A DNA stretch of 32,000 bases from Erysipelotrichaceae bacterium (GTDB lineage Bacteria > Bacillota_I > Bacilli_A > Erysipelotrichales > Erysipelotrichaceae). Shown here in pieces: positions 1 to 13,951 of the stretch; within the stretch, counting starts at the first letter, position 1, and each line of letters opens with the position of its first letter. A program made the position numbers and the translations under genes. Below the pieces are notes generated by a model, which saw nothing but the letters and a program-made list of their open reading frames with translations, made no database searches and was not told where the DNA came from. The stretch is from the NCBI GenBank assembly GCA_030604855.1, contig JAUVVC010000011.1, positions 1-32,000 on the forward strand. Direction: 5' to 3'.

Positions 1-88
1 CTAAAATTCGAACAACACGTGTAACGTTTCCCTCAAGATCGTACAACTTTAATGCTTCACTAATTTCATACTTTGAATATGATGGCAT
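1..88 (-). CDS. Partial ORF (N-terminus only, continues past window start); possibly a helix-turn-helix protein, function unknown
   Basis: ATG at 88-86 is preceded by a GAAAGGA Shine-Dalgarno (complement of about 94-100). It translates MPSYSKYEISEALKLYDLEGNVTRVVRIL... and is still open at position 1. Only 29 codons are visible, and the HTH idea rests on that short pattern alone. Confidence 0.3.
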   Translation of the reverse strand, partial: MPSYSKYEISEALKLYDLEGNVTRVVRIL

Positions 89-172
89 ACTTTTCCTTTC
101 TGAGTCCAACTTTATGTCCGCATGCCCCTCTCTACTTATAGTCAATAAATATAAGTAAGAAAAGAGGAAAAT

Positions 173-601
173 ATGAAAAAATTGATAGTTATAATGCTTA
201 GTATTTTATTATTTTTTGCAGGTTGTAAGTCATCTGGATTTATCGAAGTAGATACGAAAACAGTTAACGACAGATTGGAAAATAGTGATACCTTTATACT
301 ATATATGGGATTATCGTATTGTTCAGCGTGCAAAATATTCCGCTCTGTAGTTAAGAGTTCTATTGAAAAGGAGAACTTTGATGTATTTTATTTAGAATTT
401 GATAAAGTCCCAGAAAAAGATCAAGAACTTCTAACGACAACTATAACAAGTTTTCTAGAACAAAATGAAACTTTTCCTTATTCATTTCCAATACTATTTG
501 TAATAAAAGACGGAGTAATTCTTGATCAGTTTTCCCTTCAACAAGCAGATACTGAAGACAAATTTATTAAAAGAATTAATAATTCTGGTATTTTTGAATA
601 A
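173..601 (+). CDS. Thioredoxin-fold CxxC lipoprotein
   Basis: Lipoprotein signal MKKLIVIMLSILLFFAGC (lipobox FAGC), with an AGAGGA SD upstream. Thioredoxin-like layout: strand FILYMG followed by C-S-A-C, then later FPILFVIKDG (cis-Pro region). The substrate cannot be inferred. Confidence 0.6.
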   Translation: MKKLIVIMLSILLFFAGCKSSGFIEVDTKTVNDRLENSDTFILYMGLSYCSACKIFRSVVKSSIEKENFDVFYLEFDKVPEKDQELLTTTITSFLEQNETFPYSFPILFVIKDGVILDQFSLQQADTEDKFIKRINNSGIFE

Positions 602-630
602 GAACATTTATTTGGATTAATAAGTAAATA

Positions 631-675
631 AAACGGAATTATAAAATCAATTAGATTTATAATTCCGTTTTTATA
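631..675. terminator. Bidirectional rho-independent terminator between the convergent thioredoxin-like gene and cadA
   Basis: A 15-bp stem, aaacggaattataaa (631-645) pairing with tttataattccgttt (656-670), with a 10-nt loop. T-rich tracts follow the stem on both strands. Confidence 0.6.
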
Positions 676-862
676 AGGATAGGCACACATTCATGAACTA
701 TATCAGAATTTTGTGTATTTATAATCAAATTAACATTTTTGAAAATTAATCCATTGTATGTGCATTTAAGATTTAATCATTCAACTAAAAGGAAACAGAT
801 GTTTAAACTCAACTAGACTCTTAATACACTCTATCTATTATTACTCAATAGATTGGTATGAC

Positions 863-3247
863 TTACAAATCACGCGTATTCATAACTCTTAAAGCATTGA
901 ATACAGCTAACAACGCAACACCTGTATCAGCAAATACCGCTTCCCACATGGTAGCTAGTCCTAGTGAACCTAAAACTAAGAATATACCTTTTACAACCAT
1001 AGCTAATGCAATATTCTGAAATACAATTTTTCTTGTTTTCTTTGCAACTCTAATCGCTGTAATAATTTTAGTTGGTTCATCTGTCATTATCACAACATCC
1101 GCTGCTTCAATTGCTGCATCTGATCCAAGCCCACCCATTGCAATACCAATGTTTGCTCGAGCTAATACAGGCGCATCATTAATTCCATCTCCAACAAAGA
1201 CAATATTACCCTTTGTTGTTTTCTGTTTTTCGATTTCTTCGAATTTAGTAATTTTGTCCGTCGGCAACAACTCAGAATAAACCTCATCCAAGCCAAGATA
1301 ATTACCAATTTCTTCGCCAACTACTTTTCTATCGCCAGTAAGCATTATGGTTCTCATAATCCCTAATTTCTTTAAATCTGCAATTGTCTGTTTAGAATCT
1401 GCTTTGACTTCATCTGATACAACGATATAGCCAATATATTTTGAATCACTAGCTACATATACAATACTTCCATTCGCACTAATTTCTTCGAAAGGAATAT
1501 TCTCTTTTATCATTAATTTCGAATTCCCAACATAAACATTTATATTATCAATTTTTAAATTTATTCCGTAACCTGAAATTTCTTTATAGTCACTAATTCT
1601 ATCTAAATCTATTGTCTTAGAATATTTATTCAGAATAGCTTTAGCTATTGGATGATTAGAGTGATTTTCCGCATACGCCGCAAGTTCTAATACATTCTCT
1701 GTGTTATATCCTTCTTCCGAATTAATATTTGTGACAGTAAATATACCTTTGGTTAAAGTACCTGTTTTATCAAAAATAACCATCTCTATATTATTTAATG
1801 CTTCAAGATAATTACTACCTTTTATAAGTATTCCACGTCTTGAAGCTCCTCCTATACCACCAAAGAAACCGAGTGGTATCGATATAACTAATGCACAAGG
1901 ACAAGAAATAACTAAGAATACTAATGCTCTATAAATCCATTCATTGAAACTTTGATTTGGCATTAATAATGGCGGAAGAATTGCTAATGCTAATGCTAGA
2001 AAAACAACAATTGGTGTATACACAGCTGCAAACTTAGATATAAACTTCTCGGTTGGCGCTTTTCTGCTACTCGCATTTTCAACCAATTCAAGTATTTTCG
2101 ACACTGTAGAATCTTCAAAAGATTTAGTTACTTTGATTAAAATTAGTCCATTGAGATTTATAAAACCACTTATAGCTTGATCATCAACAAACAATTCTCT
2201 TGGAACTGATTCACCTGTTAATGCAGCAGTATCAACCATAGATGAACCTTCAATAACAACCCCATCCAACGGTACTTTTTCACCAGGATTTACAATGATA
2301 ACATCTCCAATTTTAACGCTTTCTGGCTTAACTTTAACTATTTCATTGTTTATTCTAATGTTAGCGTAATCAGGGCGTATATCCATCATCTTTCTTATTG
2401 ATCTTCTTGAATTATCAACCGCTATATCTTGAAATAATTCACCAACCAAGTAGAATAACATAACTGCAACACCTTCTGGATATTCACCGATGAAGAATGC
2501 TCCAATTGTTGCAATACTCATCAAAAAATTTTCACTAAAGACTTGCCCACTTCGAATACCCTTTAATGCCTTTAAAACGATATCGCCACCAACAATAATA
2601 TAACTTAATAGAAATATAGCTAATTCAATATTTGATTCAAACTTAAAAATCAATCCTATTGCAAATAATCCACCACCAACAATCAATTTAAATATTTGTT
2701 TATTTAATGAAAAATCATTTTCTTCATCACTTTCATGATCATCATTTTTAACATCATTCGCTAATAAAGTATTCTCTTTGGTATTTGGAAATTTCATTCG
2801 AATATCGGGCTCAATTGTTTTAGAAATACTAAATAGCTTCTCATTCAATTGATTTATATTTATATTTTTGTCAATTTCAACAATCATATTTTGATTCGCA
2901 AAATTAACAGATGCATATTTTACACCTTCAATCTGCGTGATTTTTTTCTCTATTTTGATCGCACAATTAGCACATGATAGTCCTTCAAGTTTAACTTCTT
3001 GTCTAATTACATCATTACTTTTCATTTCCACAACATTAACTTCTGGTTCAATTGATTTAATATATTTCTTAATATTTTCCATTGTACTAACTAAATTTAC
3101 ATCCTCATCATAATCAAATGAAAGTTTTCTATTCACGAAATCAACACTTACATTCGACAAGCCTGGATTTTTTTTAACATATATTTCTATTTTATTGGCG
3201 CAATTCGCACAATCTAATCCTTCTAGAATCACTTTATTATTTTTCAT
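863..3247 (-). CDS. cadA: Cd/Zn/Pb-type P1B heavy-metal-translocating ATPase
   Basis: 794 aa. Two N-terminal HMA domains with CANC motifs (GLDCANCANKIE, GLSCANCAIKIE) and an acidic/His linker (NDDHESDEEND). Membrane CPC motif (SCPCALVIS), DKTGTLT phosphorylation site and GDGINDAP hinge. It lies immediately downstream of a CadC-like repressor gene. Confidence 0.9.
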   Translation of the reverse strand: MKNNKVILEGLDCANCANKIEIYVKKNPGLSNVSVDFVNRKLSFDYDEDVNLVSTMENIKKYIKSIEPEVNVVEMKSNDVIRQEVKLEGLSCANCAIKIEKKITQIEGVKYASVNFANQNMIVEIDKNININQLNEKLFSISKTIEPDIRMKFPNTKENTLLANDVKNDDHESDEENDFSLNKQIFKLIVGGGLFAIGLIFKFESNIELAIFLLSYIIVGGDIVLKALKGIRSGQVFSENFLMSIATIGAFFIGEYPEGVAVMLFYLVGELFQDIAVDNSRRSIRKMMDIRPDYANIRINNEIVKVKPESVKIGDVIIVNPGEKVPLDGVVIEGSSMVDTAALTGESVPRELFVDDQAISGFINLNGLILIKVTKSFEDSTVSKILELVENASSRKAPTEKFISKFAAVYTPIVVFLALALAILPPLLMPNQSFNEWIYRALVFLVISCPCALVISIPLGFFGGIGGASRRGILIKGSNYLEALNNIEMVIFDKTGTLTKGIFTVTNINSEEGYNTENVLELAAYAENHSNHPIAKAILNKYSKTIDLDRISDYKEISGYGINLKIDNINVYVGNSKLMIKENIPFEEISANGSIVYVASDSKYIGYIVVSDEVKADSKQTIADLKKLGIMRTIMLTGDRKVVGEEIGNYLGLDEVYSELLPTDKITKFEEIEKQKTTKGNIVFVGDGINDAPVLARANIGIAMGGLGSDAAIEAADVVIMTDEPTKIITAIRVAKKTRKIVFQNIALAMVVKGIFLVLGSLGLATMWEAVFADTGVALLAVFNALRVMNTRDL

Positions 3248-3260
3248 TTACTTTTCTCTC

Positions 3261-3626
3261 TTATTTTTCTCTAATATGCAAGAATCCTTGACTAAATATA
3301 TCTTTTACATGTTCATCTTTGATTGAATAATAAACAACTTTCCCATCTTTTCTATTCTTCACAAGATTCGATTGTTTCAATAATCTTAATTGATGAGAAA
3401 TAGCTGATTGTGTCATATTTAATAAAGCCGAAATATCACAAACACACATTTCCGACTCATTTAGAGCCCATAAAATTCTCACACGTGTTGAATCTCCAAA
3501 AATCTTAAATAAATCTGCTAAATCAATCAGAGATTCTTCTTCTGGCATTTTGCTCTTAACATTATTTACAACATCTTCATGAATAGTCGTACAATCACAT
3601 TTAGATACTGTTTCTGAATTTTTCAT
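3261..3626 (-). CDS. cadC: ArsR/SmtB-family metalloregulator, CadC-like
   Basis: Winged-HTH core DSTRVRILWAL...TQSAISHQLRLLKQSNLV, plus N-terminal C-D-C and CVCD thiolate motifs as in CadC. The preferred start is ATG 3626 (MKNSETV...), which has AAAGGGGA 5 nt upstream. The longer ORF reaching 3665 has no SD. Confidence 0.85.
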   Translation of the reverse strand: MKNSETVSKCDCTTIHEDVVNNVKSKMPEEESLIDLADLFKIFGDSTRVRILWALNESEMCVCDISALLNMTQSAISHQLRLLKQSNLVKNRKDGKVVYYSIKDEHVKDIFSQGFLHIREK

Positions 3627-3770
3627 TTTATTCCCCTTTAGATGAACGTTTGAACATCTATTCATATATTAAATCTTTTTTAGTGATTTTTCAAGTATAA
3701 TAATTTATATTTATGTAAAGATTAATGCTAATATTTAGATTATTCTATTCGCGTAATTAAATTACTATTA

Positions 3771-3817
3771 AAAAACCGCTTTTCAGCGGCTAGTTCACCA
3801 AATTGGTGGAAGTGAGG
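3771..3817. repeat. Orphan copy (att-like) of the ssrA 3' end (14 nt) plus ssrA terminator (33 nt)
   Basis: aaaaaccgcttttcagcggCtagttcaccaaattggtggaagtgagg matches 6630-6676 at 46 of 47 positions; the only difference is C3790 versus T6649. Sequence beyond 3817 diverges from tmRNA. Confidence 0.9.
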
Positions 3818-4134
3818 CGTGGCACTTTTATCACTTGTTAAAAATTATATAAATATTATATTTGCTTTTAAAATTTTATTCTTTCAAATTTTTACTACAA
3901 GTTTAGTATATATATAAAAACAATAATAGATATTAAATTATGAGTCAAATATGCGGATGTTTTCTTAAACATTTCAGTATTTCTGTTTAAAATCTATCTT
4001 AATTTATAATAAATATAAATAGTATAAGTTGTTATTAAACTATATTAAATATATATTATAAACAGATTGAAGGTGAAATCATTTCATTCCTAGTAATCAA
4101 TTAATATAATAATATTGCACAAGGGAGGTATCCA

Positions 4135-4539
4135 ATGTTAACAATAAATGAACTTTCAAAATCAACTAATACAAATTCTGAGACTATAAGGTATTATGAA
4201 AAAATAGGGATTATTCCAAAACCAAAACTACTAGAAAACGGGTATAGATCTTATGATAATGAATATATTATTAAAATAAAGTTTATTATAAAGGCTAAAA
4301 AACTTGGGTTTACTTTGCGAGAAATCAAAGAGCTTTTTTCTAACGCGCTTGATCCTGTTAAAACTTGTAATAATATTTCTGATATTGCCTTAGCTAAAAT
4401 CGAACAAATAGAACATCAAATCTATGAATTAAGTAAGATGAAAGAACTACTTTATTCTGTTTCAATAGAATGTAATCCTTCATATTCTATAGAGGAATGC
4501 CCAATCATGAACAACTTGATGAAAAATAAAGAAGATTAA
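4135..4539 (+). CDS. merR: Hg(II)-responsive MerR-family transcriptional regulator
   Basis: N-terminal MerR HTH (LTINELSKSTNTNSETIRYYEKIGII) followed by a coiled coil. Cysteines sit at residues 78, 113 and 122. The spacing of 35 and 9 is the same as the Hg-ligand cysteines of characterised MerR (82/117/126 in Tn501). GGGAGG SD. Confidence 0.85.
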   Translation: MLTINELSKSTNTNSETIRYYEKIGIIPKPKLLENGYRSYDNEYIIKIKFIIKAKKLGFTLREIKELFSNALDPVKTCNNISDIALAKIEQIEHQIYELSKMKELLYSVSIECNPSYSIEECPIMNNLMKNKED

Positions 4540-4540
4540 C

Positions 4541-4572
4541 TTGACATTGGAGTATAGTACAGGGTTTACACT
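4541..4572 (+). promoter_or_regulatory. Candidate MerR-type promoter with over-long spacer (TTGACA-N19/20-TTACAC/TACACT)
   Basis: TTGACA at 4541-4546 starts 2 nt after the merR stop. TACACT lies at 4567-4572 (20-bp spacer), or TTACAC at 4566-4571 (19 bp). The spacer contains GTACAG, which resembles the GTACGG half-site of the Tn501 mer operator as I recall it. Confidence 0.35.
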
Positions 4573-4596
4573 TAATAAGTGTAAACCCTGTACTAT
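4554..4596. repeat. Perfect 43-bp palindrome between merR and merA
   Basis: atagtacagggtttacactta (4554-4574), a (4575), taagtgtaaaccctgtactat (4576-4596). The arms are exact reverse complements. No T-tract follows on either strand. Confidence 0.9.
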
Positions 4597-4781
4597 TAAA
4601 TACGTATAAGCAGATTTTAATAGAATACCTCATTACATGTTTTTACAATTACATTTATTTTAGGTGTTCATGCAATTTATTGGGAATAAGTAATAATACA
4701 AAATCTTAAAGAAATAACTTCTGATTAAAAGGACGAAGCATACAAATCTTACAGGATAAAATAACAAAGGAGAAATTATAT

Positions 4782-6434
4782 ATGAGAAAGTTTATATCCA
4801 AAATTGAAGGAATGACATGTAAATCGTGTGAGTTTCATGTCGCAAAAGCATTAGAAAAGGCAAATTTTAAAAGTATAAATATTGATTATCAAAGTGGTGC
4901 AGCATGGTTTGAGATATCAGATGAGGTTGAATTAGAATCAATTTATGACGCATTAGAAGCAACACCCTATAAATTTTCCGAAGTTAATGAAATACCAAAA
5001 GAAAAAGAGTTTATTCAAGAGCTTCTAGATACTAGCAACTTTGATTTTGATATTTTATTGATTGGTTCAGGGAGCGCAGCATTCTCGGCTGCTATAAAAG
5101 CATCAGAATATGGCGTTAGAATTGGAATGATTGAGAAAGGCGTTGTTGGTGGAACTTGCGTTAATATAGGTTGCATACCTTCTAAGGTACTAATTAAAGC
5201 AGGAGAATTAAATAGATCTGCTATTCAAAATCCATTTGAAGGTCTGGAAACATCAGCTAGTCTACCAAATTTAACAAAGTTAGTACATCAGAAAGATCTA
5301 TTAGTGGAAAAATTGAGAAGCGATAAGTATATTGATTTAATCAGTACTTATAATATCAAACTCATCAAAGGTGAAGCAAGATTTATAAATGAGAATGAGA
5401 TTGAAGTGAATGGAAATAAATATAAATCTAAGCGATTTTTAATTGCAACCGGTGCATCCCCATTTATTCCAACAATAAAAGGGTTAGACAACGTAGATTA
5501 TTTAACTAGTACATCAATATTAGACCTTAAGGAAATACCTAAACGATTAACTATAATAGGTTCAGGATTTATTGCTTTGGAATTAGGAACTCTTTTTAAC
5601 AACTTGGGAAGTGAAGTGACTATAATCCAAAGAAGTGATCGTCTATTAAAAACTTATGATACAGAAATATCAAGTTCCGTAGAACTTGCGCTTTCAGCAC
5701 AAGGAATTAAGTTTATAAAAGGAGTTGAATATGAAAACATAGAACAAATTAAAGACATAAGGAAGGTATATATAACTGTTGATGGCCAGCACATAGTTGT
5801 GGATAGTGATGAACTGCTCATTGCGGCAGGGAGAAAAGCAAACACAGAGTTGTTGAACTTAGAAGCAGCTCATGTCGAAGTTGGCTTAAGTGGTGAAGTT
5901 ATAATAGATGCATATTGTCAAACTAGCAATCCAAGAATATATGCTGCTGGTGATGTGACAGATGGACCACAATATGTTTATGTAGCTGGATATGAAGGTG
6001 GAGTAGCTGTAGAAAATGCTATTGGGAATAAGCAAAAGAAAATAAATTTAACTGTTGTGCCAAGCGTAATTTTCACGAGTCCATCTATTGCTTCTGTTGG
6101 ATTGACTGAAAGTCAAGCAATTGTAAAAGGGTATATGGTAAAAGTTTCGATTCTTCATTTAGATGCAGTTCCAAGAGCTTTGGTTAATTTTAACACATAC
6201 GGTGTGATTAAATTAGTTGTAGATGAACCTTCACAAAAGATTTTAGGCGTTCATATAGTTTCGGATCAAGCGGGAGAATTAATCTATTCTGCCACATTAG
6301 CTATAAAATTTGGGTTAACAATTACAGATTTAACAGATACTATTGCACCTTATTTGACTATGGCTGAAGGTTTAAAGTTAGCCGCGCTTTCATTTAATAA
6401 AGATGTTTCAAAGTTGTCATGTTGTGCAAATTAA
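4782..6434 (+). CDS. merA: Mercuric reductase with one N-terminal HMA (NmerA) domain
   Basis: 550 aa. GMTCKSCEFHV HMA motif, FAD-binding GSGSAAFSAA, redox-active disulfide GGTCVNIGCIPSK and a C-terminal vicinal cysteine pair (LSCCAN). AAGGAG SD. Confidence 0.95.
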   Translation: MRKFISKIEGMTCKSCEFHVAKALEKANFKSINIDYQSGAAWFEISDEVELESIYDALEATPYKFSEVNEIPKEKEFIQELLDTSNFDFDILLIGSGSAAFSAAIKASEYGVRIGMIEKGVVGGTCVNIGCIPSKVLIKAGELNRSAIQNPFEGLETSASLPNLTKLVHQKDLLVEKLRSDKYIDLISTYNIKLIKGEARFINENEIEVNGNKYKSKRFLIATGASPFIPTIKGLDNVDYLTSTSILDLKEIPKRLTIIGSGFIALELGTLFNNLGSEVTIIQRSDRLLKTYDTEISSSVELALSAQGIKFIKGVEYENIEQIKDIRKVYITVDGQHIVVDSDELLIAAGRKANTELLNLEAAHVEVGLSGEVIIDAYCQTSNPRIYAAGDVTDGPQYVYVAGYEGGVAVENAIGNKQKKINLTVVPSVIFTSPSIASVGLTESQAIVKGYMVKVSILHLDAVPRALVNFNTYGVIKLVVDEPSQKILGVHIVSDQAGELIYSATLAIKFGLTITDLTDTIAPYLTMAEGLKLAALSFNKDVSKLSCCAN

Positions 6435-6625
6435 GGTTAAGTATTCATTATATATAGAAGTGAACTATATATACATAACAAGATATAACGTACTAATTTA
6501 ACATAATCTTCCCTACCATATTACTTTGAATATTAATCAAAAGATTAATGAATTGGTTTAGAATCTACTTTGATTTTACGAGAATTAATAAGGAGTATTA
6601 GAACATAGTAGCTGATTCTATAGAC

Positions 6626-6650
6626 AAACAAAAACCGCTTTTCAGCGGTT
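6626..6650 (-). terminator. ssrA rho-independent terminator
   Basis: Minus strand reads AACCGCT-GAAA-AGCGGTT followed by TTTGTTTG, beginning 12 nt after the tmRNA CCA end. Confidence 0.8.
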
Positions 6651-6676
6651 AGTTCACCAAATTGGTGGAAGTGAGG
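6630..6676. repeat. att-like copy contiguous with intact ssrA (last 14 nt of tmRNA plus 33 nt downstream)
   Basis: Partner of 3771-3817, matching at 46 of 47 positions. Positions 6663-6676 are the tmRNA 3' end (CCTCACTTCCACCA on the minus strand). Confidence 0.9.
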
Positions 6677-7006
6677 GGAGTCGAACCCCTGTCCAAATTG
6701 TGTCCACATTCAAACGTCTACAGTTTAGTCTGAATTGATAATCATGCAAGTTGCCTCAGACAAGCCTTACATGATGTGTTCAACTGGATTTAACATGACT
6801 TTGATTGAACATCTGATCATGCGATTCCTTGTTTATGGTGCCAAGCTCAACCCCAAGGACAGGGTCAAGGTGACAGCTACGAGCCTTTAGTGGCTAACTA
6901 TGCAGCGAAACTTAATTTGTTTCCGGTTATTGTTTTTTGGCAATTAGGTCGCCACTCCACTGCAGTCTGAATCCAACAGTCAATCTGTCGAAACCATGAC
7001 ACCCCC
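6663..7006 (-). ncRNA. ssrA: tmRNA (SsrA), about 344 nt
   Basis: The 5' end is GGGGGUGUCAUGGUUUCGACAG. The 3' end is GGACAGGGGUUCGACUCCCCUCACUUCCACCA, with T-loop UUCGACU and an encoded CCA. The acceptor stem pairs GGGGGUG with CACUUCC and includes a G3:U pair. An internal tag frame ends ...GGA AAC AAA UUA AGU UUC GCU GCA UAG (GNKLSFAA stop). Confidence 0.95.
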
Positions 7007-7027
7007 ATGTGGGATGGATGCATTGAA

Positions 7028-7056
7028 AGTATATGACTTTTATTACAACTTGTCAA
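7028..7056 (-). promoter_or_regulatory. ssrA sigma-A-type promoter
   Basis: Minus strand has TTGACA (7056-7051), a 17-bp spacer and TATACT (7033-7028). This predicts a short leader of about 15 nt ahead of the mature 5' end at 7006. Confidence 0.7.
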
Positions 7057-7063
7057 TCAAAGT

Positions 7064-7087
7064 AAATCCCGATGTTAGTCGGGATTT
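7064..7087 (-). terminator. Hairpin at the end of the phn/EIIB operon (possible terminator)
   Basis: aaatcccga (7064-7072) pairs with tcgggattt (7079-7087). The loop contains the EIIB stop codon (7075-7077). On the minus strand the trailing tract is only moderately U-rich (ACUUUGAUU). Confidence 0.4.
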
Positions 7088-7383
7088 TTTGCTTTATTCA
7101 AGGTATCCAAAGCTAAATCCAAAACCGCTTCACCGTTCATCGTTCCATAGTTGTTCATATCGATGAACGCATAGGGAATCTTGACTTCCTTGGCATAGAT
7201 TTTGTGTAGATAACGCACTTGAGGTGCGATAAGTAAGACGTCCGCACCTTCTAATCTTTGAAATGAACGAGAGCCATAAGCATCAATCGAACAATCCAAA
7301 TCACGCTTTTTAGCGGCTTCCCGCATCTTTGTCATCAGTAAACTGCTGGATAAGCCCCCAGCACAAAACATGACGATCCTCAT
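7075..7383 (-). CDS. PTS EIIB domain protein, lactose/cellobiose family (orphan; no EIIC/EIIA in window)
   Basis: 102 aa. MRIVMFCAGGLSSSLLMTKMR...ADVLLIAPQV...YGTMNG matches the phosphocysteine loop and overall pattern of ChbB-type EIIB (E. coli ChbB ...FCSAGMSTSLLVSKMR...ADVVLLGPQI...). Its ATG overlaps the upstream phnE stop (ATGA, 7380-7383). Confidence 0.85.
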   Translation of the reverse strand: MRIVMFCAGGLSSSLLMTKMREAAKKRDLDCSIDAYGSRSFQRLEGADVLLIAPQVRYLHKIYAKEVKIPYAFIDMNNYGTMNGEAVLDLALDTLNKAKNPD

Positions 7384-8192
7384 GCGAGCTTCTTACGTAA
7401 CTGAGTTGAAATGGCCTCAACAATCAAGACAAAGATGATCAAGCCGACTAGTAATGCGCCGGCATCTTTCCATCGATAAGCATTGATCGCAAAGATCAAC
7501 GGAGCACCAATACCACCTGCCCCGACCATTCCTAAGATGGTGGCATACTTGACATTGATTTCAAAACGATAAATGGCTGTAGAAAGGAAATTACTTAGAA
7601 GTTGTGGAATGATGCCATATTGAATCTTCTGGATACGATCACAACCCGCCGCATCCAAGGCTTCAATGATGCCTGGGTCCAGTTCTTCAATGATTTCGAT
7701 ATAGAGTTTGGAAATCATTCCCACACTCGCAATCGCCAAGGTCAATACACCCGTGAAGGCACCAGGGCCCGTAACACGAATGAACATCAAACCATAGACA
7801 ACCGCTGGGAAGGTACGGATGACAGTAATGATCGCAACACCAATGTGTGCGACCCATGAAGGAACGACATTTCTAGAAGACAAAAAGGCCATTGGAATGG
7901 AAATGATCGCCCCTACGATTGTGCCTAGAAATGCGATCGCGGCCGTTTCCAACAAGAGATATGGAACGCCACCTTTCGTTGAAAAATTAAGTAGGAATTC
8001 TAGATTCGGTGTAAAGATGCTTTGGATGATCGCACCTGCGATATCCACACCGGTTTCGGTCAACCCCTTGATTTCGACATACTGCGTAGACAGAAATAGA
8101 ATCAAGAGATTAAGTACGATGATGGCTGTGTTCTTAAGCAACACCTTTGGCTGCTTACTCAATTGTTCATTGACACGTGAATTTAAACTCAT
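7380..8192 (-). CDS. phnE: Phosphonate-type ABC transporter permease
   Basis: 270 aa, polytopic. PhnE-type EAA region EALDAAGCDRIQKIQYGIIPQLL...YRFEINVKYATILGMVGAGGIG. ATGA overlap with the preceding permease gene at 8189-8192. Confidence 0.85.
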   Translation of the reverse strand: MSLNSRVNEQLSKQPKVLLKNTAIIVLNLLILFLSTQYVEIKGLTETGVDIAGAIIQSIFTPNLEFLLNFSTKGGVPYLLLETAAIAFLGTIVGAIISIPMAFLSSRNVVPSWVAHIGVAIITVIRTFPAVVYGLMFIRVTGPGAFTGVLTLAIASVGMISKLYIEIIEELDPGIIEALDAAGCDRIQKIQYGIIPQLLSNFLSTAIYRFEINVKYATILGMVGAGGIGAPLIFAINAYRWKDAGALLVGLIIFVLIVEAISTQLRKKLA

Positions 8193-9010
8193 AATAATTT
8201 CTTCCTTATCGTACGACTCAAACTCTCAATCATATATACGGTAATCATCATGACCAACAAAATCAAACCCACATCTGGGTAGACACGCCAACCCAAACGC
8301 TCATTGAGAATCAAACCGATTCCCCCAGCGCCGACATAACCCAAGATAGCCGCATTACGAATGTTCATTTCGAAGTTATAAAGAACTAAAGAGAAATATT
8401 GACCCCAAAGTTGTGGCATGATGGCAACCCAGAACGCCTGGATACGACTTGCCCCACTGGACATCAACGCTTCAAAAGGTCCCATATCGGCTGTATCAAT
8501 CAACTCATAAAACATCTTCGTCATGATGGTGAACGTAAAGATTCCTATCGCCATCGTCCCTGCAAAAGCACCGATACCAAAGATGATTCTAAACAACAAG
8601 GCCAATACCAAGATCGGGAAAGTACGGACCACACTTAGAAATGCTTTGGTGATGAACTTTACAAACTTACTCTTCATCATATTCTCAGATGAGATATAGG
8701 CAGCAGGAAGTGCCAACAAGGATCCAATAACGGTCCCTAAGATGGACATCATGATGGTAGCCAACAAGGGTTCCCAAACCTTCTCAAAATACGCGAAATT
8801 CGGTGGAATCATGCCATCCAGAATGACAAAGAACTGATACCCACGTCTAAAGAGCGTAGCCAGTTTAAAGCCCGTCAACTGGATGCTGTAGAGCGTCATG
8901 AACGTCAAAATAGGAACGACATAGATCGCTGGACTCATCTTCGGTTGGATGACCTTCCCATTACTCAAAGTAATGGGTTTCGGTAGAAACAAACGTTTGA
9001 TTCGTTCCAT
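8189..9010 (-). CDS. phnE: Phosphonate-type ABC transporter permease
   Basis: 273 aa, polytopic. EALMSSGASRIQAFWVAIMPQLW...YNFEMNIRNAAILGYVGAGGIG. It starts 1 nt after the phnC stop. Confidence 0.85.
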   Translation of the reverse strand: MERIKRLFLPKPITLSNGKVIQPKMSPAIYVVPILTFMTLYSIQLTGFKLATLFRRGYQFFVILDGMIPPNFAYFEKVWEPLLATIMMSILGTVIGSLLALPAAYISSENMMKSKFVKFITKAFLSVVRTFPILVLALLFRIIFGIGAFAGTMAIGIFTFTIMTKMFYELIDTADMGPFEALMSSGASRIQAFWVAIMPQLWGQYFSLVLYNFEMNIRNAAILGYVGAGGIGLILNERLGWRVYPDVGLILLVMMITVYMIESLSRTIRKKLL

Positions 9011-9011
9011 A

Positions 9012-9776
9012 CTAGTGTTCCATTAATTCATCATCACTGAGTTCACGTCCATAGATCTCTTTCAAGATTTGGTTATTCACTTTCGTGGATGGACCATCAA
9101 AGATGATTTTTCCCTCTTTTATACCAATCACACGTTTCGCAAACTTCAATGCGATATCCACATGGTGCATGTTCGCAATAACGGTGATATTGAGTTCCTT
9201 ATTGATCTTAACAAAATCATTCATCACTTGATTCGAAGTAACAGGATCCAACGACGCGACTGGCTCATCCGCAAGAATGATCTTGGGTTGTTGAGCTAAG
9301 CAACGTGCCAAGGCAACACGCTGTTGTTGGCCACCGGACAATTGATCGGCCCGTGTATACGCCTTCTCCAAAATACCCACCTGGTCCAAGGCTTCCAACG
9401 CAATGATCTTATTCTTCTTGGTATACAAACCCATCAGGCTCATCCACAACGGCATGTCCGCAACACGTGCAGCCAAGACATTCTTGATGACCGATGTTCG
9501 CTTGACAAGGTTGAACGATTGGAAAACCATTCCGATATCGCGACGAAAACGACGCAACTCTTTCCCTTTCAAACTCGACACATCCACACCATTGACCAAC
9601 AGTTTACCCTCGGTAATGGTATGCATTTGATTGATGGATCTTAAAAGTGTGCTTTTACCCGCACCCGATAAACCAATGATGGCCACAAAATCACCTTGTT
9701 CAACTTCTAAACTGACACCCTTCAGTGCTTGTACGCCATTTGGATAGGTCTTAACAACATTCTGAAACTGAATCAT
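9012..9776 (-). CDS. phnC: Phosphonate-type ABC transporter ATP-binding protein
   Basis: Walker A GLSGAGKST, signature LSGGQQQRV, Walker B ILADEP. AAGGAG SD. Operon context with phnD and phnE. Confidence 0.85.
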   Translation of the reverse strand: MIQFQNVVKTYPNGVQALKGVSLEVEQGDFVAIIGLSGAGKSTLLRSINQMHTITEGKLLVNGVDVSSLKGKELRRFRRDIGMVFQSFNLVKRTSVIKNVLAARVADMPLWMSLMGLYTKKNKIIALEALDQVGILEKAYTRADQLSGGQQQRVALARCLAQQPKIILADEPVASLDPVTSNQVMNDFVKINKELNITVIANMHHVDIALKFAKRVIGIKEGKIIFDGPSTKVNNQILKEIYGRELSDDELMEH

Positions 9777-9795
9777 AGTGAGACTCCTTTGATAT

Positions 9796-9824
9796 AAAAA
9801 AGAGAGCGAGGTTTAACCTCGCTC
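9796..9824 (-). terminator. Intercistronic hairpin plus U-tract between phnD and phnC (partial terminator/attenuator)
   Basis: Minus strand reads GAGCGAGG-UUAAA-CCUCGCUC followed by UCUUUUUU, located between the phnD stop (9834) and the phnC SD. Confidence 0.6.
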
Positions 9825-9833
9825 AATTGCTAA

Positions 9834-10865
9834 TTAACCCTTTGCGACTTCTGCAGCGCGACGAGCACCATCGTAATCCGCATCTGTAACGACTTTATAA
9901 CCTTCATGGTTATAAATCTTGATAGCCGTCAAACCAGCTTCGGTTTGAGCGATTTCGATAAATGATTCTTGAACGGCTTTTTTGAAGTTTTCAGTAACTT
10001 CTAGATTATTCTTACTTACGGAAATCGTGTCATTGAAGATACCTTCAGTAACGCCGATGACATCAGTTTCTTCCCAAATAGGCGTTGTACGCTTCCATTC
10101 CGTCGTCCATTGACCTTCATAGTCACGACGGATGTCCGCATAACCAACACCCACATCACATGTACCATTGGACAGGTTCAAAGCGATATCGCCATAACCA
10201 CCTGGTAATGGGGCCTTGGTCAAATCGGATAACTTCTTGTCAAAGTTTTCCAACAACCACATCGTAGGATAAACATAACCAGCAGATGAAGTAGCACTAC
10301 TGGATACACACCATTGTGCACCATTGACATCATCCCAAGTCAAAGCCGTTCCAGCATTGACTTTTTCAGCCAACATACGACCATATTCGCTTGGTCCAGC
10401 ATAAATCAATGAACGGTAATAAGTGACTTGATTGTTGGAATCGCCTAATGTAGGTTGGCCATCATTCCAATCCTTAGCAACTTCACTGTCTTTATTCAAG
10501 CCAGCACGCGTAGCAGCTAAAGCAACATCCACACCATCAGCGGAATACGCAGCGTATGTTCCACCTGGCAAGAACCCGATATGAGCGGTACCGGCAGCCA
10601 AAGCTTCACCAGCAGCATTATAATCTGTGGTAACTTCGATGGTAACGTTCTGAACGGTATAACCACGTTCGCCCATTGCGTCAATCAACATTTGCTTCAA
10701 TGGCTCTGTCGCTTCCAAGATCAAACCTGGGTCACGGCTAGGAACAAACAATACAACGAGATCTTCAATCGTCGTGTCTTCAACCACTTCAGGCTCTTTT
10801 GCACAAGCCGTCAAGGATCCAATCACTAAGATCGAAATCAACAAGATGCCTAAAATCTTCTTCAT
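9834..10865 (-). CDS. phnD: PhnD-family (phosphate/phosphite/phosphonate) substrate-binding lipoprotein
   Basis: Signal plus lipobox MKKILGILLISILVIGSLTAC. PhnD-like motifs YYRSLIY and the Ser/Thr-rich loop SSSATSSAGYVYP. AGGAGG SD. Confidence 0.8.
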   Translation of the reverse strand: MKKILGILLISILVIGSLTACAKEPEVVEDTTIEDLVVLFVPSRDPGLILEATEPLKQMLIDAMGERGYTVQNVTIEVTTDYNAAGEALAAGTAHIGFLPGGTYAAYSADGVDVALAATRAGLNKDSEVAKDWNDGQPTLGDSNNQVTYYRSLIYAGPSEYGRMLAEKVNAGTALTWDDVNGAQWCVSSSATSSAGYVYPTMWLLENFDKKLSDLTKAPLPGGYGDIALNLSNGTCDVGVGYADIRRDYEGQWTTEWKRTTPIWEETDVIGVTEGIFNDTISVSKNNLEVTENFKKAVQESFIEIAQTEAGLTAIKIYNHEGYKVVTDADYDGARRAAEVAKG

Positions 10866-10875
10866 TCGATGTCCT

Positions 10876-10898
10876 CCTGTAATGTTAAATTACAGGAT
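10876..10898 (-). promoter_or_regulatory. Stem-loop in the phnD 5' leader whose 3' arm includes part of the SD
   Basis: 9-bp arms tcctgtaat (10876-10884) and attacagga (10890-10898). On the mRNA the 3' arm AUUACAGGA runs into the SD CAGGAGG, 7 nt before the AUG at 10865. Confidence 0.4.
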
Positions 10899-10967
10899 AA
10901 TTTTAACATAGACCACCCCTCAGCTCAACGCACAATCAAGCAAGTTTGTTAAGATGTCCAAACATTT

Positions 10968-10976
10968 TGTTATAAT
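10968..10976 (+). promoter_or_regulatory. Extended -10 promoter (TGTTATAAT) predicting a leaderless mRNA
   Basis: TGnTATAAT at 10968-10976, with the ATG at 10983 only 6 nt after the -10 element. There is no SD. No alternative in-frame start exists back to the TAA at 10950-10952. Confidence 0.5.
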
Positions 10977-10982
10977 GAACGC

Positions 10983-12476
10983 ATGAAACAAAATCTTATC
11001 CTCTGCACATCCGATGTGCATGGAACCTTATCCGCCTATTCCTATTTGAATGGTTTCCTTACAAACAATGGTTTATCACGCTATAAAACAGCCGTTGAGC
11101 AATGGCGTATTCAGAATGACATCATCGTTGTGGACAATGGGGACAGTCTTCAGGGCAGCCCTTTGATGACCTATGCATTGAACATGCATGCCAAACCCAA
11201 TCCTTTAGCCACTGTATTCAATCAAATAGGCGTTGATTATGTGAATATCGGCAATCATGACTTTAATTATGGTGAATCTGCCCTATTAAACTATTTGGAA
11301 GATCTCAACGCCTTATGTCTCACATCCAATATTCTTTATCAAAATGAGCCCATTGGACATACCGTTGTCCATCAGACAGCCCATGAACGCATCGCCTTGA
11401 TTGGTTTGTGTACCGACTACATCCCCAATTGGGAGAAACCAGAACACATCAAAAACTTCAAATTCCTAGACCCCATTGAGGTCCTCAAACAAGAAATCGT
11501 TAAAGCGGATGCCGATAAGATCATCGTCTTTTATCATGGTGGATTTGAACGCGATCTAAACGATGGACATCCTACAGAGAAACTCACCGGTGAGAACGTC
11601 GGGTACGCGATTCTAAACACTCCAGGTGTCGATGCGCTCTTCAGCGGTCACCAACATCGATCCATCGCACAAAAAGTCTTAAACAAACCTGCATTACAAT
11701 GTGCACTCAACGCCAATGAGTTCATGGTTCTAGATCTCGATTCAATGAAACCCTCCCTCTATCCAATGAAAGATTACGATGTCGATTCAACGATTGAGAC
11801 CTTGATCAAACCCTTTGATGAACAAACGCAACTCTGGTTGGACCAAGAACTTGGAAGAATTCAAGGTTATGACTTTAAGATCAGAGATGCCTTTCAAGCC
11901 CGTCTACACAAACATCCTTATGTCAGCTTCATCAATCAAGTCCAAAAGGAAGCCACGCAAGCGGATATCTGTGGCACCGCTTTGTTCAATGTGGCCATCG
12001 GCTTGGATGACGTGATCCATTATCGCGACCTGGTTATGAACTATGCCTACCCAAACAGTTTGATCGTCAAGGAAATGAGTGGCAAAGTATTGCGTGCATA
12101 CTTGGAACAATGTGCAGAGTACTTTATCGTCAAAGATGGTCAGATCGCCGTGAATCCCTTATTTGATGAACCCAAGCCTCAACACTTCAACTATGACATG
12201 TTGGATGGGATTGAATACACACTGAAGATATCGAAGCCTGTTGGACATCGTGTCATTGAGCTTAAGTTCAACGGCAAAGTTATTCAAGATGATGATGTCT
12301 TTACGGTTGCGATGAACAATTATCGTGCATCAGGTGGTGGGAATTTCCACATGATCCCTGAATGTCCAACAGTGATGGAGATTCAACGTGACATGACCGA
12401 TATCATGGCAGAGTATATTCAAGCAAAAAAAATCGTGACGGTTGACCATCACGATAATATCCAGATTATTATTTAG
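10983..12476 (+). CDS. Cytoplasmic bifunctional metallophosphoesterase / 5'-nucleotidase-family protein (CpdB/UshA-like, no signal peptide)
   Basis: 497 aa. Calcineurin-type motifs DVHG, GDSLQG, GNHDF, GH(Q)H and FYHGG. The C-terminal 5'-nucleotidase-type domain ends ...MNNYRASGGGNF. The N-terminus MKQNLILCTSDVHG has no hydrophobic signal. Confidence 0.75.
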   Translation: MKQNLILCTSDVHGTLSAYSYLNGFLTNNGLSRYKTAVEQWRIQNDIIVVDNGDSLQGSPLMTYALNMHAKPNPLATVFNQIGVDYVNIGNHDFNYGESALLNYLEDLNALCLTSNILYQNEPIGHTVVHQTAHERIALIGLCTDYIPNWEKPEHIKNFKFLDPIEVLKQEIVKADADKIIVFYHGGFERDLNDGHPTEKLTGENVGYAILNTPGVDALFSGHQHRSIAQKVLNKPALQCALNANEFMVLDLDSMKPSLYPMKDYDVDSTIETLIKPFDEQTQLWLDQELGRIQGYDFKIRDAFQARLHKHPYVSFINQVQKEATQADICGTALFNVAIGLDDVIHYRDLVMNYAYPNSLIVKEMSGKVLRAYLEQCAEYFIVKDGQIAVNPLFDEPKPQHFNYDMLDGIEYTLKISKPVGHRVIELKFNGKVIQDDDVFTVAMNNYRASGGGNFHMIPECPTVMEIQRDMTDIMAEYIQAKKIVTVDHHDNIQIII

Positions 12477-13483
12477 TTGAAGATTTCTTGAAGATAATCA
12501 TATGCTTTGGCATAAACATCAAAATGCTCAGGACTTGTCTCCACAAAACCCTTGATTTGCATCTGTTCAAAGAGAGGGTTTTTAATATCTGCGGAAACCA
12601 TCGCAACAAGCACATTCTGTAAATCTTGCACAAAGACTTCATCATATTTTGTCTGTCCATCCCGATAGACCACCACATCATGGGGAATCGCATCCGTAAG
12701 CGCGAATAATTCCAATTCAGAATAGATCGAAGCACTGCGATCATAGCCCGCGCTCGACCACTTCGATGCATATTGGTCTCGGATGTCCTCCGGTCCAACA
12801 ACGATGTCACAATTTTGATTCGCAACACGCATCATCATTTCATCGTAACCACGGATGACCCGTTCATGTTGGAAGAGTTCCACGATGCGTCGATCATAGT
12901 TTTCAATCAACCACAAACTAGGGTAGATGTAGCCTTCTAAGGAAGTGACCAAGACATGGCACCACTTCGCTCCATTCAAATCAATCCAAGTGAGTTGCTC
13001 ACCGGTATTGAGTTTCTCTCTGAGCTTCATTGCATACTCCGAACTTCCTAAATATAAGGCTGAACGGTGCGTGGAACTTAATGTTTTACTTGCATCAAGT
13101 TGAACAGGATCATTCCAAGCATCCAATTCTGTTGGATCCAAGTTGTAAGAAGGCTCCAGTTGCGTCAACAAAGGCATCAATCCTTGATCTTTCAAATCAA
13201 AGTACGTCAACTTAGAAATGAACGCAATATCCGCCAAGCCACTGATGATCATCTCACCAGCTTGATGATTGCTCGTCGCACGGATAAGCTCCAGTTTTTG
13301 AACATCGTAACCGGCTTCACGTAACTGTGTTTTCAATTCTTTTTCGAAGGTTTGATCAAGCTGATTGAAAGATTCCACACTGATCGATGGTGAAATGGCA
13401 ACGGTTAAAGATTCAATGGGTTTAGGAGCGAAAACCGTGCACGCTTGAAGCAAAAGCAGGCTTAAGAAGAGGAACTTTTTCAT
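12473..13483 (-). CDS. Divergent PhnD-family substrate-binding lipoprotein (paralog of 9834-10865)
   Basis: A canonical lipoprotein signal MKKFLFLSLLLLQAC starts at ATG 13483. The ORF stays open upstream to GTG 13528, which overlaps the EIIB stop. It aligns by eye with PhnD-1, e.g. LTWIDLNGAKWC...GYIYPSLWLIENYD versus LTWDDVNGAQWC...GYVYPTMWLLENFD. Confidence 0.7.
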   Translation of the reverse strand: MKKFLFLSLLLLQACTVFAPKPIESLTVAISPSISVESFNQLDQTFEKELKTQLREAGYDVQKLELIRATSNHQAGEMIISGLADIAFISKLTYFDLKDQGLMPLLTQLEPSYNLDPTELDAWNDPVQLDASKTLSSTHRSALYLGSSEYAMKLREKLNTGEQLTWIDLNGAKWCHVLVTSLEGYIYPSLWLIENYDRRIVELFQHERVIRGYDEMMMRVANQNCDIVVGPEDIRDQYASKWSSAGYDRSASIYSELELFALTDAIPHDVVVYRDGQTKYDEVFVQDLQNVLVAMVSADIKNPLFEQMQIKGFVETSPEHFDVYAKAYDYLQEIFN

Positions 13484-13524
13484 GTGTAATGATTGTATCA
13501 TAAAAAAATCGTATAAAACGATTT

Positions 13525-13824
13525 TCACTCATCCTTCATGAGCTTGCGGGCTTGAGCCAAGACCATTCCACCATTCATGGTGCCATAGGCAACATCATTG
13601 ATGGCTTGGACTGGGCATGGGATTTTTTCTTGCAATTCTTTGACTCGGAATGCGATTTGTGGTCCAACCAAAACAGCATCCGCATCTTGAGCGTACTGAG
13701 GATTGGTCGCCGCAAACGCTTCAACGGTGCAATCATAACCGACTGCCTTTGCCGCATCACGCATCTTGAGGACCAACAGACTGCTGGACATCCCTGCCCC
13801 ACAGAATAATACAATTTTCTTCAT
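13525..13824 (-). CDS. PTS EIIB domain protein, lactose/cellobiose family (second orphan copy)
   Basis: MKKIVLFCGAGMSSSLLVLKMRDAAK...ADAVLVGPQIAF...YGTMNG. The preferred ATG at 13824 is preceded by GAGGTG; the ORF track begins two codons earlier at a GTG (13830). It lies directly upstream of the PhnD-2 gene with no terminator between them. Confidence 0.85.
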   Translation of the reverse strand: MKKIVLFCGAGMSSSLLVLKMRDAAKAVGYDCTVEAFAATNPQYAQDADAVLVGPQIAFRVKELQEKIPCPVQAINDVAYGTMNGGMVLAQARKLMKDE

Positions 13825-13844
13825 GAGCACCTCATTTCAACATC

Positions 13845-13859
13845 CATTATGTCATAATG
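13845..13859. promoter_or_regulatory. Perfect 7-1-7 palindrome upstream of the EIIB-2/PhnD-2 unit (candidate operator)
   Basis: cattatg-t-cataatg at 13845-13859, 21-35 nt upstream of the EIIB-2 ATG. It overlaps a CATAAT -10-like hexamer on the minus strand. Confidence 0.35.
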
Positions 13860-13951
13860 TTCACAAGGTTTCAACGCTTAGAGGCGTTCTATACTTTTAA
13901 GTAAAAAAAGCATATAATAATTGAAAGAGAAGTCATAAAAAAGGAGAAAAT

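Follow-up and report, generated by a model that had tools for sequence, protein, structure and literature searches.

The two genes considered here lie in a 32,000-nucleotide (nt) stretch of contig JAUVVC010000011.1 (hereafter, the window), which derives from an uncultured member of the Erysipelotrichaceae. Both are predicted to encode enzyme IIB (EIIB) components of the sugar phosphotransferase system (PTS), and both adjoin genes for a phosphonate-type (Phn-type) ATP-binding cassette (ABC) importer, which comprises the binding proteins PhnD-1 and PhnD-2, the ATPase PhnC and two PhnE permeases. The best-supported description of these proteins, called EIIB-1 and EIIB-2, is that they are ordinary EIIBs in an unusual, clade-restricted genomic position. 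EIIB-1 is predicted to be the last cistron of the importer operon, EIIB-2 is predicted to be transcribed separately from its importer neighbour, and both are recent additions to a locus whose widely conserved members are the importer and a cytoplasmic phosphoesterase. The same locus is present in the metagenome-assembled genome (MAG) UBA4808 (L009), in which PhnD-1 is 97% identical to that of the window, and it is compared below with loci of other genomes and contigs, identified by L or P numbers.

Two orphan EIIBs of the Lac/cellobiose family

EIIB-1 (7075-7383, minus strand) is a protein of 102 amino acids (aa) with its predicted phospho-Cys at residue 7, and EIIB-2 (13525-13824, minus strand) is a protein of 99 aa, when counted from its ATG, with its predicted phospho-Cys at residue 8. 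Both were assigned to the Lac/cellobiose family of PTS EIIBs by Pfam profile PF02302 (PTS_IIB), with scores of 65 bits for EIIB-1 and 64 bits for EIIB-2 against a cut-off of 23.6 and coverage of profile positions 1-89 of 90, and by matches to structures in the Protein Data Bank (PDB). EIIB-1 matches 4MGE_A (E 8e-17), EIIB-2 matches ChbB (2WY2_D; E 5.6e-17), and the two align over their full length with 4MGE, 2L2Q, 1H9C, 2WY2 and 1E2B (E 1e-10 to 6e-17); they are predicted to share the fold of the solved EIIB-Cel proteins. The N-terminal loop reads FC(A/G)(G/A)G(L/M)SSSLL, Cys7 of EIIB-1 and Cys8 of EIIB-2 align with Cys10 of ChbB, and this phospho-Cys is invariant across all EIIB-1 and EIIB-2 orthologues. 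In addition to the G-x-S-S-S-L-L loop, both proteins retain the PQ and YG..(N/D)G motifs of the family, and they are 41% identical to each other. Scores against the NCBIfam equivalogs for cellobiose and chitobiose EIIBs (NF007796, NF007155, TIGR00853) fall below the cut-offs (67-72 bits against 110, and 55-70 bits against 157), so no sugar specificity can be named for either protein.

The initial annotation had recognized these two open reading frames (ORFs) of ~100 aa as cellobiose/lactose EIIBs with a phosphocysteine loop and had noted the absence of EIIC and EIIA genes from the window, and it is borne out on both counts. A six-frame search of the 32-kb window, combined with Pfam analysis of the remaining ORFs, detected exactly two EIIBs and no EIIA, EIIC or GH1 gene. 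Partner genes just outside the locus had also been considered, and none was found nearby: there is no EIIA, EIIC or GH1 gene in the 4.4 kb past the right end of the window or in the 3.7-kb contig covered by its left extension, and no EIIA or EIIC gene lies within 10 kb of the locus in L001-L013, L089-L091 and L100-L109.

As estimated from the ratio of nonsynonymous (dN) to synonymous (dS) divergence, both EIIBs are under purifying selection. Values of dN/dS are 0.04-0.23 for EIIB-1 and 0.03-0.10 for EIIB-2, at dS values that range from 0.26 to saturation (>2), and they can be compared with 0.01-0.16 for the second permease (PhnE2), PhnC, PhnD-1 and PhnD-2. Both EIIB ORFs are intact in every lineage, and the dN of EIIB-1 is ~4 times that of its neighbour PhnE2. 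Taken together, these analyses establish EIIB-1 and EIIB-2 as genuine orphans that are canonical in sequence, maintained by selection and predicted to be phosphorylatable.

Transcriptional context of EIIB-1 and EIIB-2

The ATG of EIIB-1 overlaps the TGA of phnE as the tetranucleotide ATGA (7380-7383), which was read directly in the sequence, and an overlap of 4 nt or 1 nt is kept in all lineages that bear EIIB-1 (L001, L005, L008, L089, L103). No promoter-like site was found ahead of the gene, and a terminator scan placed the hairpin that would end the operon across the EIIB-1 stop codon (7064-7087, minus strand). By these features EIIB-1 is truly operonic, a predicted last cistron of phnD-C-E-E that shares the operon terminator, as had been proposed from the overlapping start and stop codons. 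The predicted co-transcription of EIIB-1 with phnE, and probably its translational coupling, is the sole connection to the importer that can be read from the DNA.

Two other elements may shape expression of this operon. A G+C-rich hairpin followed by a T-run was found by the terminator scan between PhnD-1 and PhnC (9804-9824, minus strand) and is likely an attenuating terminator that sets the binding protein in excess of the membrane components; EIIB-1 would then be produced in low amounts, like those components. Further upstream, a perfect palindrome, CCTGTAAT-N5-ATTACAGG (10875-10897), overlaps the Shine-Dalgarno sequence of PhnD-1 and persists as far as lineages in which PhnD-1 is 75% identical (L015, L016); it could be an operator for a regulator or an RNA hairpin that sequesters the Shine-Dalgarno sequence. 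A second copy upstream of EIIB-2, as would be found in a shared regulon, was considered and rejected, as the window contains no other perfect copy and matches with 2 mismatches occur at chance level.

EIIB-2 has transcription signals of its own. A consensus scan identified a promoter-like site upstream of the gene (TTGAAA, 17 nt, TG-CATAAT; 13846-13874, minus strand), and the -35 element, the extended -10 element and a GAGGT ribosome-binding site are conserved in L001, L012, L013 and L089. At the other end of the gene, a conserved terminator-like hairpin (AAAATCGT / ACGATTTT) with a T-run begins within the EIIB-2 stop codon (13502-13525, minus strand) and, when read from 13525 to 13502, consists of an A-tract, an 8-bp hairpin and T7. 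This hairpin folds in 10 of 10 orthologous loci (-7 to -14 kcal/mol), and across these 10 loci pairing in the stem is complete (100%) and includes one compensatory change from UA to CG, while the loops vary. The terminator scan passed over this element for the sole reason that its stem has two G-C pairs. The statement in the initial annotation that no terminator separates EIIB-2 from PhnD-2 is contradicted by this conserved hairpin and T7, and by the -10 box of PhnD-2 that follows them.

The start of PhnD-2 is placed at the ATG at 13483, which gives the lipoprotein signal MKKFLFLSLLLLQAC and which gene callers also picked in relatives. A GTG that overlaps the EIIB-2 stop codon had been noted as the beginning of the downstream ORF; the ORF is indeed open in frame from that codon, but this is an artefact of ORF calling and translation almost certainly starts at ATG 13483. 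There is no Shine-Dalgarno sequence ahead of this ATG, and an extended -10 box, TGATACAAT (TG-n-TACAAT; 13492-13500, minus strand; read in the sequence), is located 8 nt upstream of it. In most lineages compared, a TG-n-TAAAAT or TATAAT box is found 7-8 nt ahead of the PhnD-2 ATG; this distance is 12-14 nt in L013 and L109, and L096 has no such box. The spacing of the box and the lack of a Shine-Dalgarno sequence suggest that a leaderless mRNA encodes this secreted lipoprotein. Because L015 (~7330-7351) and L016 (~7327-7348), both of which are without EIIB-2, also have a TATAAT 7-8 nt ahead of the PhnD-2 ATG, PhnD-2 came with a promoter of its own, one that is probably leaderless. In MAG UBA4808, the gene for an IS91-family transposase (Zn_Tnp_IS91 plus Y2_Tnp; L009 270-1090) abuts the T-run upstream of PhnD-2; this element replaces the EIIB-2 terminator hairpin and spares the PhnD-2 promoter, and apart from this L009 and L001 do not differ across the locus. 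The terminator of PhnD-2 itself (12432-12455, minus strand; terminator scan) falls within the 3' end of the nucleotidase gene, which is convergent with PhnD-2. EIIB-2 is, as these conserved signals demonstrate for the predicted transcripts, adjacent to PhnD-2 but transcriptionally insulated from it.

The importer locus and the distribution of the EIIBs

The importer genes are on the minus strand. They encode PhnD-1, a lipoprotein substrate-binding protein (9834-10865; PF12974, 98 bits); a PhnC-type ATPase of 254 aa that consists of a nucleotide-binding domain only (9012-9776; TIGR02315, 343 bits against a cut-off of 266, with coverage of profile positions 1-243 of 243 and no extra Pfam domain); two PhnE-type permeases (permease 1, 8189-9010, 249 bits; permease 2, 7380-8192, 229 bits; TIGR01097 cut-off, 216.7); and PhnD-2, a fast-evolving lipoprotein substrate-binding protein of the PF12974 family (12473-13483; 81.5 bits) that is 31% identical to PhnD-1. 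The binding proteins score below the PhnD equivalog TIGR03431 (PhnD-1, 35 bits against 261) and the subfamily TIGR01098 (PhnD-1, 79.7, and PhnD-2, 35.8, against 112). Among solved structures, PhnD-1 is weakly similar to PtxB and PhnD-2 has no PDB relative. No gene for carbon-phosphorus (C-P) lyase (phnG-M) or for the phosphonatase pathway (phnW/X) is present in the window. On the plus strand between the two units is a gene for a metallophosphoesterase/5'-nucleotidase-like enzyme (10983-12476; Metallophos plus 5_nucleotid_C) that has no signal peptide, contains the metallophosphoesterase motifs DxH, GD, GNHD and GHxH, and has matches at 2e-96 to two uncharacterised PDB entries, 3QFK and 4Q7F, in agreement with its initial description as a cytoplasmic phosphoesterase/5'-nucleotidase.

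The distribution of this locus was surveyed in 80 genomes with the same PhnD-C-E-E genes, one per species, in which the position after phnE could be read in 66 genomes and >3 kb upstream in 68. The nucleotidase gene directly adjoins PhnD-C-E-E in 61 of the 80, and loci with importer and nucleotidase span the Erysipelotrichaceae, Paenibacillus, Cohnella, Bacillaceae, Acholeplasmataceae, Izemoplasmatales and Clostridia. Importer and cytoplasmic phosphoesterase together form the functional unit that is widely conserved, and EIIB is not part of it. With a cytoplasmic phosphoesterase of the 5'-nucleotidase-like type as conserved partner, the probable cargo is a phosphate ester and not a phosphonate, and the module is probably a system for uptake and hydrolysis of phosphate esters (possibly nucleotide-like ones) that has been mis-annotated as a phosphonate transporter.

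By comparison, an EIIB adjoins the locus in 3 of the 80 species genomes, all from one Erysipelotrichaceae subclade in which PhnD-1 is at least 85% identical, so the conservation of PTS_IIB next to phnD or phnE across Firmicutes that had been envisaged is not observed. The arrangement is also not unique to this strain, as it recurs within the clade: the double-EIIB architecture is complete in the metagenome contigs L001-L005, L089-L091, L103, L104 and L106, the LemA/EIIB-2/PhnD-2 arrangement persists down to 61% EIIB-2 identity (L096), and EIIB-1 persists down to about 60%. The protein database contains ~22 EIIB-2-type and 11 EIIB-1-type clusters at 90% identity. Of the three species genomes, L009 has EIIB-1, its EIIB-2 position being lost in the IS91 element at a contig end; L012 has EIIB-2 on a contig that stops short of the EIIB-1 position; and L013 has EIIB-2 only.

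Sister lineages show stepwise accretion of the locus. L033, L037 and L039 have LemA, the nucleotidase gene and PhnD1-C-E-E followed by the transfer-messenger RNA (tmRNA) gene; L015 and L016 have the same genes plus PhnD-2 and neither EIIB; L012 and L013 add EIIB-2; and the group to which the window belongs adds EIIB-1. In L013, the phnE stop codon is followed directly by the terminator and the tmRNA promoter, so that EIIB-1 is cleanly absent, and PhnE and PhnC of this locus differ from those of the EIIB-1-bearing L008 by a dN of only 0.04-0.07; because these proteins are so close, EIIB-1 was probably lost in L013 with nothing else changed. In L108, a 69% identical EIIB-2 orthologue is found 7 kb from the nucleotidase and PhnD-1 genes, amid unrelated genes and with PhnD-2 absent. 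Both EIIBs are recent, dispensable additions in one narrow clade.

The relatives of the two proteins point to separate origins. Outside the clade, the protein nearest to EIIB-1 (P0206, 55% identity) is part of a canonical GH1-EIIC-EIIA-EIIB operon, and the nearest EIIB-2 relatives (53-59% identity) are stand-alone EIIBs or EIIB-EIIA pairs (L092, L111, L113) without EIIC. A local duplication was rejected, since EIIB-1 and EIIB-2 are 41% identical to each other as compared with 53-59% to EIIBs elsewhere. Of these stand-alone relatives of EIIB-2, one is beside aldo-keto reductase, MFS and TetR genes (L093) and another between lrgAB and an acetyltransferase gene (P0172); a third, L118, shares a 771-kb contig with L103, a complete double-EIIB Phn locus. 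Therefore, genomes of the clade hold at least three orphan EIIBs and, because these are scattered in unrelated contexts, orphan status and odd neighbours are a rule of the clade and not a property of this locus. The 309-aa product of the gene that follows the L093 orphan was considered as a hidden PhnD-2 and rejected. The orphan EIIBs of L114 and L118 (10001-12800) precede genes for thioredoxin, rhodanese and CoA-disulfide-reductase-rhodanese (CoADR-rhodanese), and the gene order at L108 8255-10303 is ArsR, ArsP_1 permease, Thioredoxin_3 and EIIB.

Divergence is unevenly distributed across the locus. Between the window and L001, dS is 0.28 for EIIB-2, 0.40 for PhnD-1, 0.89 for PhnC and 1.3-1.7 for PhnE2, EIIB-1 and PhnD-2, and this mosaic points to recombination (allelic replacement) within the locus; a possible cause is diversifying selection that acts on the surface lipoprotein and those next to it. 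When the window is compared with the near-identical strains L001 and L005, identity is 97-99% for LemA, EIIB-2 and PhnD-1 but 81-85% for PhnD-2, the nucleotidase and EIIB-1, with dS values of 1.4-1.7 for PhnD-2 and EIIB-1.

On the minus strand, the order of genes across the region is secG, rnr and smpB, then EIIB-2 and PhnD-2, then PhnD-1, PhnC, PhnE, PhnE and EIIB-1, then tmRNA and a low-GC heavy-metal island; LemA and DUF2207 genes are on the plus strand between smpB and EIIB-2. The tmRNA (6663-7006, minus strand; tag GNKLSFAA), the sole family detected by an Rfam scan of the window, has a near-consensus promoter (7056-7028) directly after the EIIB-1 terminator. The island to its left (window 1-7056) has a GC content of 26-35%, as compared with 41-45% in most of the window to the right, and encodes a PedC-like lipoprotein, a CadA-type P1B ATPase, an ArsR/CadC regulator, MerR and a MerA-like reductase. 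Different cargo occupies this position in relatives: L001, L005 and L008 have a serine-recombinase island, L089 has a transposase and L090 has DUF2089, so the tmRNA gene is an integration hot spot. The gap between smpB and DUF2207 is ~70 nt in the window, and a sugar island occupies this slot in the sister chromosomes L015 (1-4330) and L016 (780-4320). The L015 island contains a Lac-family PTS EIIC gene, two genes for GFO/IDH/MocA oxidoreductases, an HbpS-like gene and RpiR; that of L016 has the same gene set except for an MFS transporter that replaces EIIC. This Lac-family EIIC, ~6 kb from PhnD-2 on the L015 chromosome, indicates that Lac-type PTS permeases exist in the group and that sugar genes are variably inserted in this neighbourhood.

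Possible roles of the EIIBs and comparison with known systems

From the gene anatomy, distribution and selection documented above, we infer that EIIB-1 and EIIB-2 may be ordinary phosphocarriers of the Lac/cellobiose family that act in trans with EIIA(Lac) and EIIC(Lac) proteins encoded elsewhere, the leading explanation, which we place just short of an even chance. A phosphoryl group would then pass from the phospho-His of EIIA(Lac) to Cys7 or Cys8 of the EIIB and on to a sugar bound at EIIC(Lac), and the two genes would be part of a set of stand-alone EIIB genes that is scattered, in a lineage-specific way, within one Erysipelotrichaceae subclade. The ancestral unit would have comprised the nucleotidase gene and PhnD1-C-E-E, joined next by PhnD-2; EIIB-2 would have been the third arrival, as a self-contained promoter-gene-terminator unit, and EIIB-1 the last, captured without a promoter at the 3' end of the importer operon. 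Several observations weigh against an in-trans PTS role. No EIIA or EIIC partner is seen in the ~20-kb stretches read from any locus-bearing genome, two independently derived EIIBs are located within 7 kb (an event to which a rough estimate, assuming 3-4 orphans in a ~2-Mb genome, assigns a chance of a few percent), and the overlap of EIIB-1 with phnE survives saturated dS. In L096, the most distant lineage (EIIB-2 61% identical), the EIIB-2 stop codon is 3 nt from the PhnD-2 ATG and the hairpin is absent. It is also odd that a sugar-PTS component with a purely conventional role would be placed under the promoter of an organophosphate importer.

Some of these observations can be read as signs of a sensor: EIIB-1, produced stoichiometrically alongside the permease, would bind PhnC or PhnE when in one of its phosphorylation states, as EIIB-2 possibly would too, and would thereby switch organophosphate uptake on or off according to sugar/phosphoenolpyruvate (PEP) status, an inducer-exclusion-like control exerted by an EIIB instead of EIIA-Glc or HPr. 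EIIB-1 is a promoterless, overlapping last cistron behind the permease, with the overlap kept in all bearers; one locus holds two separately derived EIIBs; EIIB-2 and PhnD-2 are tightly coupled in L096; and the phospho-Cys loop is strictly retained, so phosphorylation state could serve as a signal. In addition, a dN for EIIB-1 that is ~4 times that of its neighbours under purifying selection fits adaptation to a new partner, and EIIB domains act as regulatory ligands in other systems (the EIIB of PtsG with Mlc, EIIB-Mtl with MtlR). However, the importer is EIIB-free in >60 other species, L013 is without EIIB-1 and L015 and L016 are without either protein, EIIB-2 is transcriptionally insulated from PhnD-2, which is itself extracellular, and a literature search for a link between EIIB and phosphonate transporters returned incidental co-mentions and no precedent. 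Control of the MalK type as such, the model on which the initial annotation had drawn, is disfavoured by the structure of PhnC, a bare 254-aa nucleotide-binding domain without a MalK-type regulatory domain, so any control by EIIB would need a different contact. A sensor of PTS state is possible but doubtful. It seems unlikely that EIIB-1 is a phosphorylation-dependent accessory subunit of PhnC/PhnE that ties phosphate-ester uptake to PTS (sugar/PEP) status, with EIIB-2 perhaps doing likewise for PhnD-2, and we take an equally sceptical view of a regulatory link between EIIB and importer as originally put forward.

Chemical roles for the EIIBs are harder to reconcile with the locus. The co-transcription of EIIB-1 with permease genes and its intact phospho-Cys loop would be compatible with a hybrid of ABC and PTS chemistry, in which phosphorylated EIIB donates its phosphoryl group to, or accepts one from, a compound delivered by the ABC importer and the permease acts as an EIIC; the use of PTS phosphoryl groups on a non-transported substrate has a precedent in DhaM with DhaL/K. 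This is highly improbable, as the phosphoesterase partner in 61 of the 80 loci points to a cargo that arrives phosphorylated and is then hydrolysed, sister lineages dispense with EIIB, and PhnE has no similarity to EIIC. More improbable still is a PTS-independent Cys enzyme with a fold like that of low-molecular-weight (LMW) phosphatases and ArsC, which would dephosphorylate or reduce the imported phosphorus compound, even though the EIIB fold is related to that of LMW protein-tyrosine phosphatases and ArsC and two other orphan EIIBs of the clade adjoin thiol-redox genes (L118/L114; L108). The loops C-A-G-G-L-S-S-S of EIIB-1 and C-G-A-G-M-S-S-S of EIIB-2 follow the pattern C-x-x-G-x-S-S-S, in which Ser replaces the essential Arg of the catalytic CX5R(S/T) loop; position Cys+6 is Ser in every orthologue and Arg in neither EIIB. 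Searches of Pfam, NCBIfam and the PDB with both EIIBs returned zero phosphatase or ArsC matches, and the two proteins are far nearer to true EIIBs than to any phosphatase, results that disfavour the phosphatase-like chemistry suggested earlier. A redox cascade formed by Cys32 and Cys70 of EIIB-2 was also rejected, since these extra cysteines are unconserved in EIIB-1 and the orphans and are present in EIIB-EIIA pairs and GH1-linked EIIBs. The least probable proposal is that both genes are functionless remnants of a decayed cel/chb operon that are found here by accident. The smpB-tmRNA region is variable and hosts the island with a PTS EIIC in L015, and tmRNA is an integration hot spot, but a state of decay is largely refuted by selection, given ORFs that are intact everywhere, dN/dS of 0.03-0.23 at dS from 0.3 to >2, invariant family motifs, and a conserved promoter and ribosome-binding site.

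Should EIIB-1 prove to act on the importer, it would represent a new class of PTS output and a first case in which an EIIB, instead of EIIA-Glc or HPr, acts on an ABC transporter, and it would tie carbon status to phosphorus scavenging in Bacillota. Otherwise, which is judged more likely, the locus provides a caution that a clade-restricted adjacency, or an overlap of start and stop codons, can come from capture of a promoterless gene and is not proof of mechanism. A lead of wider reach is the Bacillota-conserved pairing of PhnD-C-E-E with a 5'-nucleotidase-like enzyme, which is routinely mis-annotated as a phosphonate transporter.

Comparison with known systems places these proteins among the Lac/cellobiose EIIBs, such as E. 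coli ChbB and Borrelia CelA (PDB 1IIB/1E2B/2WY2/2L2Q/4MGE), with which they share a length of ~100 aa, full-length alignment, a phospho-Cys at the N-terminus of the P-loop, and the PQ and YG..(N/D)G motifs; unlike ChbB and CelA, they are not encoded beside EIIA, EIIC or a glycosidase, and their loop contains SSS instead of STS. LMW protein-tyrosine phosphatases and ArsC are, as is generally known, similar to EIIB in their alpha/beta fold and in a nucleophilic Cys that opens a phosphate-binding loop, but the EIIBs of the window differ from them in having no Arg at Cys+6 and no sequence match to those families. The importer resembles E. coli PhnCDE and the PtxABC phosphite importer in that PhnC and both PhnE proteins pass the equivalog cut-offs and the binding proteins belong to PF12974, whereas the binding proteins fall short of PhnD and TIGR01098, and a phosphoesterase partner is found instead of C-P lyase or phosphonatase.

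The logic of a PTS protein that controls an ABC importer is shared with inducer exclusion by EIIA-Glc, in which the regulatory domain of MalK supplies 45% of the EIIA-Glc interface (PMC6906923; PDB 4JBW). The proteins themselves differ, with an EIIB-Lac fold here as compared with the beta-sandwich of EIIA-Glc and a PhnC that is without the MalK regulatory domain. Components that are encoded away from their permease are also found in other PTSs: the orphan cellobiose-family protein CelB3 of Enterococcus faecalis contributes in trans (PMC11976118), and the single-domain EIIA PtsA/YpqE of Bacillus subtilis serves several PTS permeases (PMC6148471). EIIB-1 and EIIB-2 are like CelB3 and PtsA in this separation, and like PtsA they would be single-domain cytoplasmic proteins, but the window has one orphan as the last cistron of a non-PTS ABC operon and the clade has several orphans.

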